This document shows, piece after piece, positions 6,601 through 36,711 of a stretch of DNA of 64,000 nt. The DNA is taken from contig JAGXNO010000008.1 of the NCBI GenBank assembly GCA_019894975.1, positions 8,294 through 72,293 on the forward strand, written 5' to 3'. How positions within the stretch are numbered: the first letter of the stretch is position 1; the number at the start of each line of letters is the position of its first letter. This DNA comes from Promethearchaeota archaeon. GTDB taxonomy: Archaea > Asgardarchaeota > Lokiarchaeia > Sigyniarchaeales > SOKP01. Below the pieces are notes generated by a model that made no database searches, was not told the origin of the DNA, and saw only the letters and a program-made list of their open reading frames with translations. The translations under genes were made by a program, and so were the position numbers.

Positions 6601-6903
6601 TTAATCCTTTTTTAAGATCAACTTATTTATTGGAATATCTTGATATTCTCCATGGGGATACTCACGTCTAATGGTTAACGGTAAGATTCTCGCTTTTAGT
6701 TCTAGCTTGGCAATCTTAATTGGGTCAATAACCTCCTTAGGTTTCTCGATAAGCATAGGTGCACCATAAGACAATTGTAATGCTCGTGCCCCAACAATCC
6801 GCGCTTTCTCGTACCTAGTTAAAAAGATTGGGCCAATTTTGACATATTCTCTGACTTCTTTATATTGTTTGCGTAATTCTCGAGATTCTAGAAAACTAGA
6901 CAT
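6601..6903 (-). CDS. rpoK: DNA-directed RNA polymerase subunit K (Rpo6)
   Basis: LTRYEKARIVGARALQLSYGAPMLI is the conserved Rpo6/RpoK core. Start placed at the ATG (6903) rather than the upstream TTG (6918). Confidence 0.8.
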   Translation of the reverse strand: MSSFLESRELRKQYKEVREYVKIGPIFLTRYEKARIVGARALQLSYGAPMLIEKPKEVIDPIKIAKLELKARILPLTIRREYPHGEYQDIPINKLILKKD

Positions 6904-6990
6904 GGTTAAGCTAACCAAAAAATAAGTAATTAGATTTTTAAATGTAGGATATGATATAACTTTTTCGATAATGAAGGTAAAAATAAGGAA

Positions 6991-7125
6991 TGCGCGAGGA
7001 GGGAAATGTTCAAACCGAAACAGTTTTTCGGAATTTTGAACCCCCGACCTTCGTGATTTATATTTTACATTAATATAAATTTACACGGTGTGAGCGTGTC
7101 GTTATAGCCACTAAACCACTCGCGC
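6991..7125 (-). tRNA. tRNA-Val(CAC) with two putative non-canonical introns (32 nt after position 44, window 7050..7081; 30 nt in the T-loop after position 58, window 7006..7035)
   Basis: Minus strand: acceptor GCGCGAG/CTCGCGC+A, anticodon arm ACACG-CTCACAC-CGTGT, T-arm GGGGG..CCCTC. The gene is 135 nt and 73 nt once both inserts are removed. Each insert is flanked by bulge-helix-bulge pairing (see findings). Confidence 0.7.
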
Positions 7126-7314
7126 ATGGTTGTACTTAAGAATAATGAGCTATTTGAAATAAATCTTTTTCTGCTCACTAATTACAAAGTGTTTATTAAA
7201 ATATTAGTAATTCGATTTAAGAACATAAATACATTTTATTGATCTTGTTAAGTCTTATGGTTTATATATTCCATATCAATTCTTTACACAATATGATATT
7301 GAGATTTTATTCTG

Positions 7315-9627
7315 GTGATTACGTTCTCAACAAATGAAGATTTTATTTCTCATCCCCTTATTAAGAAAGATTTTGTTTCACGAAGAGAATACCAAGAAAT
7401 CATTTTTATAAATTGTTTAAATCAGAATTGTTTAGTGGTGATTCCTACTGGTTTGGGTAAGACAATTATTGCGTTAATGCTTTCGGTATATAGATTGTCA
7501 GAACTACCAAAATCAAAAGTAATTTTTTTAGCACCTACAAAACCCTTAATAGAACAGCATCATAAATCTTTCTTGGATCTTACGTTACTTCCCCCAGAAT
7601 CATTACAATCTCTTACAGGAACGATTCTCCCTAAAAAGAGAAAAGAAATCTGGACTCAAATACAAGTTGCTTTTATGACCCCTCAGGTCCTACAAAATGA
7701 CCTAATTTCTGGCTTATATTCGCTTGAAGATGTCTCTCTTATTATATTTGATGAATGCCATCGAGCAGTTGGAGATTATGCCTATGTTTTTATCGCGAAA
7801 AAATATACAAGTGCCTCTAAAGGGCATCAAATTTTAGGCCTTACGGCGAGCCCAGGGTCCACTCAAGAGAAAATAAATGAAATTAAAGAAAATTTGTTTA
7901 TCAATCATATAGAGATTAGAACTGATAAAGATAGTGATGTAAAAAAGTATGTTCAGAAAGTCGATACTGAATGGATTAAAATTTCTTTGCCTGATGAATT
8001 CTTGGAGATTAAAAGGATATTAGAAGAAAAATTAAAAGAAATCTACAAATGGCTAAAAGAAAAAGATTTGCTTAACTCATTTGACATCAATAAAATTACC
8101 CGTAAAGATTTACTGAAATTAAACAATACAATTAATGGGAGAATCTCAGCATCGCGAAACGATGATGAAAAATACGATATGTTTTATGCGAAAAAATGTC
8201 AAGCTAATGCGATTAGGATATCTCACATGTCAGAGCTCCTTGAAACACAGGGAATTAATGCGTTAAAAGATTACCTGGAAAAAAATGAAGAGAAAATTAA
8301 GAATAACACAGCTAATAAATCCCTTAAGGAATTGTTTGTTGACAAGAATTTTAGAAAGGTAAAACAATTAACATATGAGATTCAAGCTCAAGGAGTTGTT
8401 CACCCAAAACTTGAGAAATTGAGAGAGATATTGACAACTCAATTACAAGCAAATTCCGAATCAAGAATTTTAGTTTTTGCTCATTTTCGTGACTCTGTAA
8501 ATAATATTGTAAGATATCTCAAGGAAGACAGTATTATTAAACCACACAAGTTCATTGGACAAGCACATAAAGGATCTGATAAAGGATTAACACAAAAAGA
8601 ACAGATTAGACTACTTGAAGATTTCAAAGAAGGAACTTATAACACACTTGTAGGCACAAGTGTTGCAGAAGAAGGTTTAGATATTGCTGAATGTGATTTG
8701 GTTGTGTTTTACGACGTTGTTCCAAGCGCTATTCGCTCTATTCAGAGACGGGGTCGAACAGGTCGTAAAAAAGAAGGGAATGTTTTTGTATTAATGGCTG
8801 AAGGTACAAGAGATGAGGGGTATTATTGGGCTGAGAAAGCTAAAGAAAAGAATATGAGGGACAGCTTGAAAAAAATAAAATCATCTCAGAATGGTCCTAA
8901 AAAAGAACAAGCAAACCTTCTGAACTTTATTGAAAAAGCTAAAAACAATAGTGTTTCAGAGCAAAAATTAGCTGGTGCGGAACTAATTGAAATAGCGTGT
9001 GATAATAGGGAAACCGCCTCTTCAGTGGTCAGAAACCTTTCATTAATGGGAGTTAATCTAAGATTGGAACAATTATCAGTAGGGGATTATATAATTTCAA
9101 AACGAGTTGGTATTGAAAGAAAAAGCTCACAAGATTTTACAGATTCGATAAAGGACGGTAGGCTCTTTAAAGAATTAAAGAATTTAACAGATAATTATGA
9201 AAGGGCTATATTAATACTTGAAGAAGATCCCTTTGAAAATTCGAGTCTTGACGAAAATGCTATCTATGGTGCAATATCTTCAATAATTCTAAATTTAGGT
9301 GTTTCAATTTATAAAACTAAAGATGCTAAAGAAACAGCAATGTTTTTATATCAATTGGCTAAAAAAGAACAGTCAGAAAGTAAATCTTCCCTAAAACTCA
9401 GATTTGGTAAAGCTCCAATTGAAACTTCTCGTCTTTTAGAATATGTTATAGCCGGAATTCCTGGAGTAAATACACTTCGAGCAAAGAATTTATTAAAAGA
9501 GTTTCAAACTTTGCAAAATATTTTCTTGGCAGATATACCAGACTTAACAAAAATTGAAAATATTGGCAAAAAAATTGCCCAAGAAATTTATAAAATTAGC
9601 AGATACAAATATAAGAACGATCACTAG
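7315..9627 (+). CDS. hef: Hef: helicase-associated endonuclease for fork-structured DNA (SF2 DEAH helicase plus ERCC4/XPF nuclease plus HhH2)
   Basis: Walker A PTGLGKT, DECHRAVGDYAY, helicase motif VI QRRGRTGR. C-terminal ERCC4 motif GDYIIS..VGIERKSSQDFTDSIKDGRLFKEL. Terminal HhH region GIPGVNTLRAKNLL...IGKKIAQEI. GTG start. Confidence 0.85.
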   Translation: MITFSTNEDFISHPLIKKDFVSRREYQEIIFINCLNQNCLVVIPTGLGKTIIALMLSVYRLSELPKSKVIFLAPTKPLIEQHHKSFLDLTLLPPESLQSLTGTILPKKRKEIWTQIQVAFMTPQVLQNDLISGLYSLEDVSLIIFDECHRAVGDYAYVFIAKKYTSASKGHQILGLTASPGSTQEKINEIKENLFINHIEIRTDKDSDVKKYVQKVDTEWIKISLPDEFLEIKRILEEKLKEIYKWLKEKDLLNSFDINKITRKDLLKLNNTINGRISASRNDDEKYDMFYAKKCQANAIRISHMSELLETQGINALKDYLEKNEEKIKNNTANKSLKELFVDKNFRKVKQLTYEIQAQGVVHPKLEKLREILTTQLQANSESRILVFAHFRDSVNNIVRYLKEDSIIKPHKFIGQAHKGSDKGLTQKEQIRLLEDFKEGTYNTLVGTSVAEEGLDIAECDLVVFYDVVPSAIRSIQRRGRTGRKKEGNVFVLMAEGTRDEGYYWAEKAKEKNMRDSLKKIKSSQNGPKKEQANLLNFIEKAKNNSVSEQKLAGAELIEIACDNRETASSVVRNLSLMGVNLRLEQLSVGDYIISKRVGIERKSSQDFTDSIKDGRLFKELKNLTDNYERAILILEEDPFENSSLDENAIYGAISSIILNLGVSIYKTKDAKETAMFLYQLAKKEQSESKSSLKLRFGKAPIETSRLLEYVIAGIPGVNTLRAKNLLKEFQTLQNIFLADIPDLTKIENIGKKIAQEIYKISRYKYKNDH

Positions 9628-15320: not shown

Positions 15321-15849
15321 ATGGTTTATGACATTAAAAGTGATATTACTGAAATAATAAATCGCATTGAAAAAGAAAATATCTCATTAAAAGATAAGAC
15401 AGTTTTAGTAACGGGGGGCGCTGGCTTCTTAGGTTCATGGGTCTGTGATGTCCTAGTTGAACAAGGGGCTTATTGTATATGTTTAGATAATTTGACGTCT
15501 GGTCAACCAAAAAATGTTCAACATTTAATGGAGAAAGATAATTTTAGGTTTATTAATCACGATATCTCGTACCCTATATATTTTGGAATGAGTTACCATC
15601 CATTAGGTATTTGCATTGGTGATATTAAAAAAATTGATATTGTTATGCATATGGCAAGTAGAGCCTCACCATTTGAATTTCAGAAAGATCCTATAGCGAT
15701 TCTTAGGAGCAATACGTTAGGAACATTAAATTCGCTAGGAATAGCAAAATTCCATAATTCGATATTTTTCTATACGAGCACTTCTGAGGTTTATGGAAAC
15801 CCACCGAATGAAGAGATACCATCTCCAGAGACTTACTTTGGGCACGTAA
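15321..15849 (+). CDS. UDP-glucuronate decarboxylase / UDP-xylose synthase-like extended SDR, exon 1
   Basis: VLVTGGAGFLGSWVCDVL (Rossmann GxxGxxG), MHMASRASP, TSTSEVYGNP...ETYFGHV. As an ORF it then runs into ILV-stop at 15858..15860. Confidence 0.8.
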
Positions 15850-15880
15850 TTCTTGTATAAGGATTCCTACAAGAGCGTAT
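15850..15880 (+). other. Putative 31-nt bulge-helix-bulge (BHB) intron inside a protein-coding gene
   Basis: Inner helix 15851-57/15868-74 (7 bp). Bulge 15848-50. Central helix 15844-47/15875-78 (4 bp). Bulge 15879-81. Outer helix 15838-42/15882-86. Removing these 31 nt joins GTA A|AC CCA to give GHVNPVGPRSCYDE. Confidence 0.65.
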
Positions 15881-16413
15881 ACCCAGTAGGTCCAAGGAGC
15901 TGTTATGATGAGTCTAAGAGGGCGGGGGAAGCTTTCATTAAGGCATATGAACTACAACATCAAATGAGAACAAAGATTGTAAGAATTTTTAACACTTCTG
16001 GGCCAAGAATACGTCATGGACCTGAGTTTGGCAGAGTTGTTCCAAATTTTATACATCAAGCGGTAAACGATGAAGATATTACTATTTTTGGGGATGGATC
16101 ACAAACAAGGTCTTTTATTTATGTGGTAGATGAGATCGAAGGAATCCTAAAAATGGTGTTTAATGATGAAGCAAATGGAGAGGTTATTAATTTAGGCAAT
16201 GATAAAGAATATACCATATTAGAGTTAGCGAATATCATAAAAGATTTAGCAGGTTCTAATTCAAAAATAGTTTATAAACCACTACCTATTGATGACCCCG
16301 TACGTCGATGCCCCGATATCACGAAAGCAAAAAAAATCTTAAATTGGGAACCTACAACTTCCTTGGAAGAAGGACTTAAAAAAACCATTGCATGGTTCAA
16401 AGATAATGAATAA
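15881..16413 (+). CDS. UDP-glucuronate decarboxylase / UDP-xylose synthase-like extended SDR, exon 2
   Basis: (N)PVGPRSCYDESKRAGEAF contains the catalytic YxxxK. It continues with RIFNTSGPR and PDITKAKKILNWEPTTSLEEGLKKTI, a typical UXS/ArnA-type C-terminus. It sits in the +1 frame relative to exon 1. Confidence 0.8.
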
Positions 16414-36478: not shown

Positions 36479-36582
36479 CGGGCTATGAGGGATGTGTTCA
36501 GAAAACGCTCAATGCGAGTCCCGTTGAACCCCCGACCTGCCGGTTAAGAGCCGGTTGCGCTACCTGCCTGCGCCAATAGCCC
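36479..36582 (-). tRNA. tRNA-Lys(CUU) with a 30-nt T-loop intron (after position 58; window 36494..36523)
   Basis: Minus strand: GGGCTAT / GCGC-AGGCAGGTA-GCGC / ACCGG-CTCTTAA-CCGGC / AGGTC / GGGGG-TTCAA[30 nt]AT-CCCTC / ATAGCCC-G. The intron 3' end GAAC pairs with exon GUUC to form a BHB. Confidence 0.75.
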
Positions 36583-36608: not shown

Positions 36609-36711
36609 ACGCAGATGGAGGGATTCGAACCCCCGAGCGCTTATGCGCACTGGCTCACTTGGTTGTATAATACACTCAAGGCCAGCGTCTTACCAACTAG
36701 GCTACATCTGC
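36609..36711 (-). tRNA. tRNA-Ser(UGA), class II, with a canonical 37/38 intron of 20 nt (window 36655..36674)
   Basis: Acceptor GCAGATG/CATCTGC+G. Anticodon arm CTGGC-CTTGAG[TGTATTATACAACCCAAGTG]A-GCCAG. Long variable arm TGCGCATAAGCGCTC. T-arm GGGGG-TTCGAAT-CCCTC. Confidence 0.8.

Follow-up and report, generated by a model that had tools for sequence, protein, structure and literature searches.

Is a 135-nt segment that standard tRNA finders pass over a valine tRNA gene, and if so, how would its transcript be spliced? The segment lies on the minus strand (7125..6991) of the window, by which we mean the whole 64,000-nt stretch of DNA that was analysed. The source organism is a Lokiarchaeia-type Asgard archaeon (Promethearchaeota), and the window is located on contig C164 of a draft genome of 3.93 Mb in 175 contigs, with 95% completeness and 8.5% contamination. 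From our structural and comparative analyses, we conclude that the locus is a real valine tRNA gene, which is split by two tRNA-type introns in unusual places.

Gene structure and predicted product

Removal of 32 nt (7081..7050) and 30 nt (7035..7006) leaves 73 nt, made up of exons of 44, 14 and 15 nt. The joined exons were identified by ARAGORN as tRNA-Val(cac) with a normal cloverleaf and the anticodon CAC at positions 34-36. Both the coordinates and this call agree with the original prediction of a 135-nt gene that gives a 73-nt tRNA-Val(CAC) once two inserts are taken out. All parts are encoded on the minus strand. Exon 1 (7082..7125) comprises positions 1-44, with the 5' strand of the acceptor stem, the D-arm, the anticodon arm and A44, and is followed by intron 1 (7050..7081). 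Exon 2 (7036..7049) comprises positions 45-58, with the rest of the variable loop, the 5' strand of the T-stem and U54-A58, and corresponds to the invariant alignment columns 77-90. Intron 2 (7006..7035) interrupts the T-loop, and exon 3 (6991..7005) completes the molecule with positions 59-73, consisting of U59 and U60, the 3' strands of the T-stem and acceptor stem, and the discriminator A73; CCA is not encoded. Since gene positions coincide with standard tRNA numbering from position 22 onward, the inserts are situated at 44/45 and 58/59.

The 73-nt product has the conserved bases U8, A14, G18G19, A21, U33, A37, G53, U54U55C56, A58 and C61, and scored 31.5 out of 32 in our own check of conserved features. 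Its acceptor stem (7 bp), anticodon stem (5 bp) and T stem (5 bp, including one G-U pair) are fully paired. The exons have a GC content of 59%, compared with 12% for intron 1, 33% for intron 2 and 31.6% for the genome. ARAGORN made no call on the unspliced gene in the window, with or without its search for anticodon-loop introns, nor on either of the two singly spliced forms. The locus was likewise not found by Rfam at the gathering threshold: the unspliced sequence obtained 23.8 bits with the tRNA model (RF00005), below the threshold of 29 bits, in a misaligned fit that wrongly takes the AT-rich helix of intron 1 as the T-arm.

Upstream of the gene, a purine-rich run followed by TTTATTT (7155..7171, minus strand) was read from the sequence as a putative BRE/TATA promoter, whose TATA centre precedes the mature 5' end by about 35 nt. 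Downstream, a T-rich trailer (6979..6990, minus strand) contains a run of five T residues (6983..6979) that is likely to act as a transcription stop, and T-rich trailers also occur 3' of the gene in orthologues. A DNA contig from a different study is an exact copy of 6993..7125, and this independent match shows that the gene is not an assembly artefact. No contigs from one metatranscriptome (X19) or from two runs that are probably DNA (X14 and X20) lie over 6914..7317. Given its sequence, the tRNA-Val(CAC) precursor would be expected to be spliced.

Orthologues and intron states

For comparison, exact matches to the 5' exon were collected from a species-level genome collection, which gave 24 contigs. 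Most of these are labelled Promethearchaeota or Promethearchaeia, and three carry Odin- or Hodarchaeota labels. The orthologous gene was found in four intron states among related genomes: intron-free with a length of 73 nt (L022, L026 and L030), with one canonical intron at 37/38 and a length of 95 nt (L008, L009, L019, L036 and duplicates), with one intron at 44/45 and a length of 104-105 nt (L006, L007 and L023), and with both introns and a length of 135 nt (12 distinct sequences). The two-intron form is present in at least 13 species-level genomes, and three of the four states occur within the window's own genus, as placed by the search tool. The intron-free genes are identical to the predicted product at 69/73 (L022), 70/73 (L030) and 68/73 (L026) positions, and obtained Rfam tRNA scores of 67.3, 67.2 and 63.8 bits, respectively.

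Several loci with two introns or with a 37/38 intron share flanking promoter elements, namely AAAAG-ATTTA(A/T)TTCA upstream and TCGAAAAAGTTATAT downstream, which indicates that they are the same locus in different species. The position of the upstream element matches that of the window's putative promoter in many orthologous loci. The downstream, BRE/TATA-like TCGAAAAAGTTATAT element is located at 6942..6957 (minus strand) in the window, occupies the same place in many orthologous loci, and probably serves as promoter for the minus-strand ORF that follows (6918..6601, 105 aa).

When the 12 genes with two introns are aligned, variation affects 3 of 73 exon columns, compared with 20 of 32 in intron 1 and 15 of 30 in intron 2. 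Mean pairwise identity is 97.8% for the exons, and 70% and 74% for the introns. Exon 1 is identical in all 12 orthologues except for a single D-loop column (C/T, gene position 19). When the structure with two motifs is imposed on the alignment, 92% of the cells are paired, versus 32-51% after the partners are shifted by one to three columns as a control. Changes on both sides of a pair (compensatory changes) were detected in five pairs, all in the inner helices of the introns, and four of them in intron 1. The constancy of the exons, the freedom of the introns and the existence of intron-free alleles are, at the sequence level, what would be expected of archaeal BHB introns. The positions 44/45 and 58/59 originally assigned to the introns are thus borne out by ARAGORN, by the intron-free orthologues and by the variation among columns, and the predicted mature variable loop AGGUC and T-loop UUCAAUU are confirmed as well.

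BHB motifs and folding of the precursor

The motif was taken to consist of two 3-nt bulges separated by a helix of 4 bp, each bulge being cut behind its second base. This geometry places the cuts after gene positions 44 and 76 for intron 1, and after 90 and 120 for intron 2. In intron 1, the central helix is formed by CGUG (C39-G42) and intron CACG with all four pairs, the bulges are UA|A and AA|G, and the inner helix has 8-9 bp; the outer helix consists of only 2 bp (A37 C38 with G46 U47). In intron 2, G49-G52 form an outer helix of 4 bp with U60-C63, and G53-C56 (GUUC) form the central helix with intron GAAC, again with all four pairs. Its bulges are AA|A and AU|U, its inner helix is CCGAAA/UUUCGG, and its BHB score is 4/1/3. 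All helices and bulges named in the original prediction are therefore present in the sequence of both introns. The description of intron 1 as a textbook BHB goes too far, given its 2-bp outer helix and the need of its motif for the 3' strand of the anticodon stem.

Because the central helix of intron 1 uses C39-G42, which constitute that strand, the precursor must take an alternative fold. This fold is favoured in the computed ensemble (p 0.73-0.81, versus 0.07-0.08 for the anticodon stem), and the motif is present in the minimum-energy fold. A U-U mismatch is present in the central helix of intron 1 in six of the 12 orthologues. In the case of intron 2, A89-A91 are paired with U112-U114 in the free-RNA ensemble (p 0.89-0.99), which hides the 5' bulge and results in 7 bp instead of 4 between the bulges. 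With the 5' bulge AAA paired to UUU in this way, the minimum-energy fold of the window's gene departs from the canonical motif. For orthologues whose column 91 is T and whose columns 112-114 are AG(T), the canonical motif is the better fold, as read from the alignment. For the whole precursor, hand-built BHB structures came to -29.5 to -32.0 kcal/mol versus a minimum of -40.5 kcal/mol, a comparison between structures that differ outside intron 2 too. On the basis of the modelled folds, intron 2 would count as a relaxed motif, while still qualifying as an archaeal BHB intron. With both introns of the relaxed kind, a tolerant enzyme would be needed.

BHB-like sites occur in the genome at 0.0014-0.0035 per strand position after GC filtering, and the tRNA-Val(CAC) locus alone contains 35 relaxed candidates. 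As such geometry is common in the genome, the motif by itself proves little, and it is the comparative evidence that is decisive.

Position of the splice sites and status of the gene

The alignment columns at the end of intron 1 (75 and 76) and at the start of intron 2 (91) vary, and no variation is seen in columns 44, 77, 121 and 122, a pattern that pins the splice sites to 44/45 and 58/59. Cuts at these sites yield the same A44 and the same T-loop UUCAAUU in all 12 genes. We consider it very unlikely that the gene and its introns are real with one or both cuts displaced by one base, to 43/44 for intron 1 and 59/60 for intron 2. The junction A of intron 1 is repeated, so that a cut at 43/44 leaves the product unchanged in the window's genome, but across species position 44 would then be A, U or C, in contrast to the A44 of the intron-free genes. 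With a cut at 59/60, the T-loop would be UUCAAAU, as in the intron-free L030, and one-base shifts are also compatible with the absence of the 5' bulge at 89-91 from the minimum-energy fold. In this register, however, the 4-bp central helix is lost, with only one of four pairs formed, and the T-loop would differ among the orthologues instead of being shared by all 12.

It is still harder to believe that the locus is a decaying or disrupted tRNA pseudogene that has kept its inserts, with GUG codons being read by tRNA-Val(UAC). A Val(UAC) gene is indeed present in the same window, the standard finders make no call, and expression data at the locus are absent from the RNA runs examined. A pseudogene would nevertheless decay evenly, whereas here the exons are near-invariant while the inserts diverge and their helices are held by compensatory changes. 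The maintenance of the promoter-like and T-rich elements, the spread of the two-intron form over the species-level genomes counted above, and the similar construction of many other tRNA genes of this genome likewise speak for a gene with two introns at 44/45 and 58/59.

Other interrupted tRNA genes in the genome

Only 28-29 tRNA genes were seen by ARAGORN and Rfam in the genome. We carried out a census in which one or two BHB-like segments were removed before ARAGORN was applied. This approach gives many alternative solutions per locus, misses three-intron genes and creates artefacts, among them false 'introns' placed at positions 71-72 in tRNAs that have none; only clear cases are reported, and the counts are lower bounds. 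The census recovered tRNA-Val(CAC) with exactly the boundaries of the original prediction, and at least 12 other tRNA genes require the removal of non-canonical inserts of about 30 nt. Inserts in the T-loop at 58/59 or 59/60 are found in Thr(GGU), Gln(UUG) (twice), Lys(CUU), Phe(GAA), Leu(GAG) and Leu(CAA). Arg(CCU) (C97:24956-25060) has a variable-loop insert of 30 nt, and D-arm inserts occur in Leu(UAA), Arg(UCU), His(GUG) and Gln(CUG). A T-loop insert in Asn(GUU) was seen in some census runs and fell under the cut-off in the final one.

No second Val(CAC) gene was found in the genome by ARAGORN, Rfam, the census or a DNA search; as the genome is a draft, its status as the only copy is provisional. 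In a comparison by eye, the T-loop introns of the Val, Lys, Thr, Gln, Phe, Leu and Asn genes share just the 3' bases that pair with the exon. A common origin of these introns by copying between genes was considered and is unsupported, since in this informal comparison only the exon-pairing bases are shared.

Two further tRNA genes on the minus strand of the window deserve mention. The tRNA-Lys(CUU) gene (36479..36582), which was missed by ARAGORN and Rfam and found by the census, has a 30-nt T-loop intron at 58/59 with a strong motif (central helix 4/4, inner 3, outer 3). The gene at 36610..36711 was labelled Thr(tgt) by ARAGORN; without a 19-nt canonical intron, it is an 83-nt class II tRNA-Ser(UGA). 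Elsewhere in the genome, Phe(GAA) is represented by two different genes (C32 and C71), and RtcB by a second, partial gene (C48); both observations may stem from the 8.5% contamination.

Splicing enzymes and proposed pathway

The EndA catalytic domain was matched twice in the genome, on different contigs. The first protein (alpha; 202 aa, L001 1165-1773) is closest to the catalytic chain of the (alpha-beta)2 enzyme of Aeropyrum pernix (3P1Z chain B, 1e-34) and keeps the Tyr/His/Lys triad. The alignment of its NKPR with EKPR of 3P1Z chain B is ungapped and puts K60 of the query at the position of K44. This K44 is depicted in the Crenarchaea-specific loop, in which a conserved lysine is said to confer a broad substrate range (PMC5829648). 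In the second protein (beta-like; 200 aa, L002 1210-1812), the catalytic Tyr and His are replaced by Phe and Thr, which points to a structural, beta-type subunit. Both proteins match PF01974, and only the 202-aa protein exceeds the cut-off of PF02778; the 200-aa protein obtained 18.1 bits, under the cut-off of 21 bits. A full-length RtcB ligase was also detected (562 bits).

Two paralogues, one predicted to be catalytic and one structural, together with the loop lysine, suggest an (alpha-beta)2 EndA with the Crenarchaea-specific loop (L1). Given the completeness and contamination of the draft genome, the pairing of the two EndA genes is provisional. The original prediction held that the two introns imply a broad-specificity endonuclease and proposed that its type be identified. 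To judge from the proteins, the predicted type is present, as an alpha subunit with the loop lysine and a beta-like paralogue that resemble an (alpha-beta)2 pair, along with RtcB.

We are highly confident in the overall reading that this is the sole detected tRNA-Val(CAC) gene, with a precursor that comprises about 135 nt in addition to a leader and a trailer, and that its two BHB introns would be spliced by an (alpha-beta)2 EndA and RtcB. From the observed gene structure, conservation pattern and enzyme genes, we infer transcription, cutting and joining as follows. Transcription would start from the BRE/TATA-like element about 35 nt upstream and stop at the T5 run. The 3' end of each intron would then pair with the four exon bases upstream of its 5' splice site (C39-G42 and G53-C56). 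The (alpha-beta)2 EndA, with an alpha loop that tolerates relaxed motifs, would cut after the second base of each 3-nt bulge, at four sites in all. The exons would stay together, the 14-nt middle exon through the T-stem and the outer exons through the acceptor stem, until RtcB ligates the three of them. RNase P and RNase Z would trim the ends, and CCA would be added, because none is encoded.

An mRNA intron in the same window

A 31-nt insert on the plus strand of the window (15850..15880) interrupts a gene for an SDR-type sugar-nucleotide enzyme, which appears as the ORF pair 15321..15860 and 15853..16413. With the insert removed, ...ETYFGHV joins NPVGPRSCYDE... in frame, and the conserved GHVNPVGPRSCYDE motif is restored. 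The central helix of the insert is 4 bp long (ACGU/GCGU) and its inner helix 7 bp, with AA|U and AU|A as the bulges. The original prediction had regarded a broad-specificity endonuclease as the prerequisite for this mRNA intron, a link that we consider plausible.

A possible intron loss and an HNH endonuclease gene

In one relative (G017), the Val(CAC) gene has the 44/45 intron alone (L006, 1501..2607, identical to L041; contig C83). A 284-aa ORF lies 3' of this gene and has two matches to HNH endonuclease families in PHROGs (5e-19 and 2e-16); Pfam and NCBIfam returned nothing useful for it. Past the ORF follow an orphan 3' part of a tRNA, with a T-loop intron homologous to that of the window, and then the usual downstream promoter. 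This arrangement looks, from its sequence, like the loss of the T-loop intron through a mobile cassette, by which the old, intron-bearing 3' end would have been replaced. In L007 (G024), the ORF is gone and the orphan has decayed.

Homologues of the HNH protein are present in 27 of 54 genomes of the genus, with a patchy distribution, often in several copies and some with stop codons; the window's own genome has no match. A tRNA gene or T-arm was located within about 1.2 kb of an HNH homologue in 8 of 24 fetched loci. In three relatives (G050, G012 and G007; loci L042, L044 and L046), the homologues lie about 250-325 nt from an intron-free tRNA-Arg(CCU) gene, two with encoded CCA, and no orphan tRNA pieces were found beside these three HNH-adjacent tRNA genes. 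A broader scenario, in which the gene switches between four states within one genus and at least one T-loop intron was lost by means of a cassette of about 1 kb that carries a tandem-HNH gene and a fresh intron-free 3' part, is at present speculative and, in our judgement, improbable. How introns turn over in Asgard archaea is still described in the literature as an open question.

Comparison with known systems

Asgard archaea and Thermoproteales are already known to have interrupted tRNA genes, and Val(CAC) is a clean further example. In Atabeyarchaeia and Freyarchaeia genomes, 92-95% of the tRNA genes are interrupted (PMC11291895). A 2026 preprint reports about 2.2 inserts per gene in some families, reconstructs many gains, and finds the strongest motifs in T-arm inserts and two EndA paralogues in most genomes (bioRxiv 10.64898/2026.10.13.758758). 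Kaneta 2018 predicted the tRNA genes of four Asgard genomes, including Lokiarchaeota CR_4, and mapped gene types against EndA type; Asgard archaea were assigned an (alpha-beta)2 EndA with the L1 loop, with which the two EndA paralogues detected here agree. The present case resembles the published Asgard cases in its multiple short BHB-type introns, many of them non-canonical, including in the T-arm, and missed by standard finders. It also resembles them in the two EndA paralogues that fit an (alpha-beta)2 enzyme and in an intron content that differs between close relatives. The published cases centre on other classes, whereas here the Val(CAC) gene of a Promethearchaeota genus occurs in four states among orthologues; neither Lokiarchaeia nor Promethearchaeia is named anywhere in the text of the 2026 preprint.

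In Thermoproteales, multi-intron tRNA genes have introns at positions such as 45/46, 56/57 and 59/60 (Marck & Grosjean 2003; Sugahara 2008; Fujishima 2010; references given in PMC4090602). The original prediction described such genes as best known from Thermoproteales; they are known there, but are documented in Asgard archaea too (PMC5829648, PMC11291895, bioRxiv 10.64898/2026.10.13.758758). Position 44/45 was not found named in the tRNA-intron literature cited here, which is no evidence of newness. The likeness to Thermoproteales lies in the several BHB introns per gene, which depend there on an (alpha-beta)2 EndA with the Crenarchaea-specific loop. Unlike in Thermoproteales, the T-loop introns of different genes share only a few exon-pairing bases, and the host has a mesophilic-type, AT-rich (31.6% GC) Asgard genome.

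The alpha protein aligns with the EndA of A. pernix (PDB 3P1Z, 3AJV) over residues 44-202 (E 1e-34), with a two-residue gap near the C-terminus. As in that enzyme, the triad and the loop lysine are kept and there is a second, catalytically dead paralogue, features that are read here from the protein sequences. Unlike in A. pernix, the beta-like paralogue is closest in sequence to the homotetrameric enzyme of M. jannaschii.

Significance

The Val(CAC) gene alone leaves the knowledge of archaeal tRNA splicing unchanged. It contributes a well-supported case, for which orthologues with no, one and two introns are available, to the strongly interrupted tRNA genes in the archaea closest to eukaryotes. 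When interrupted genes are not read as such, the genome seems to miss tRNA-Val(CAC), along with roughly one third of the tRNA set, as judged by ARAGORN and Rfam tRNA. The genome also appears, from its predicted proteins, to have the relaxed-specificity splicing enzymes that its mRNA introns would need. Should the replacement suggested for the relative described above hold generally, one driver of tRNA intron turnover in Lokiarchaeia would be homing-type endonuclease cassettes with tRNA genes as their targets.
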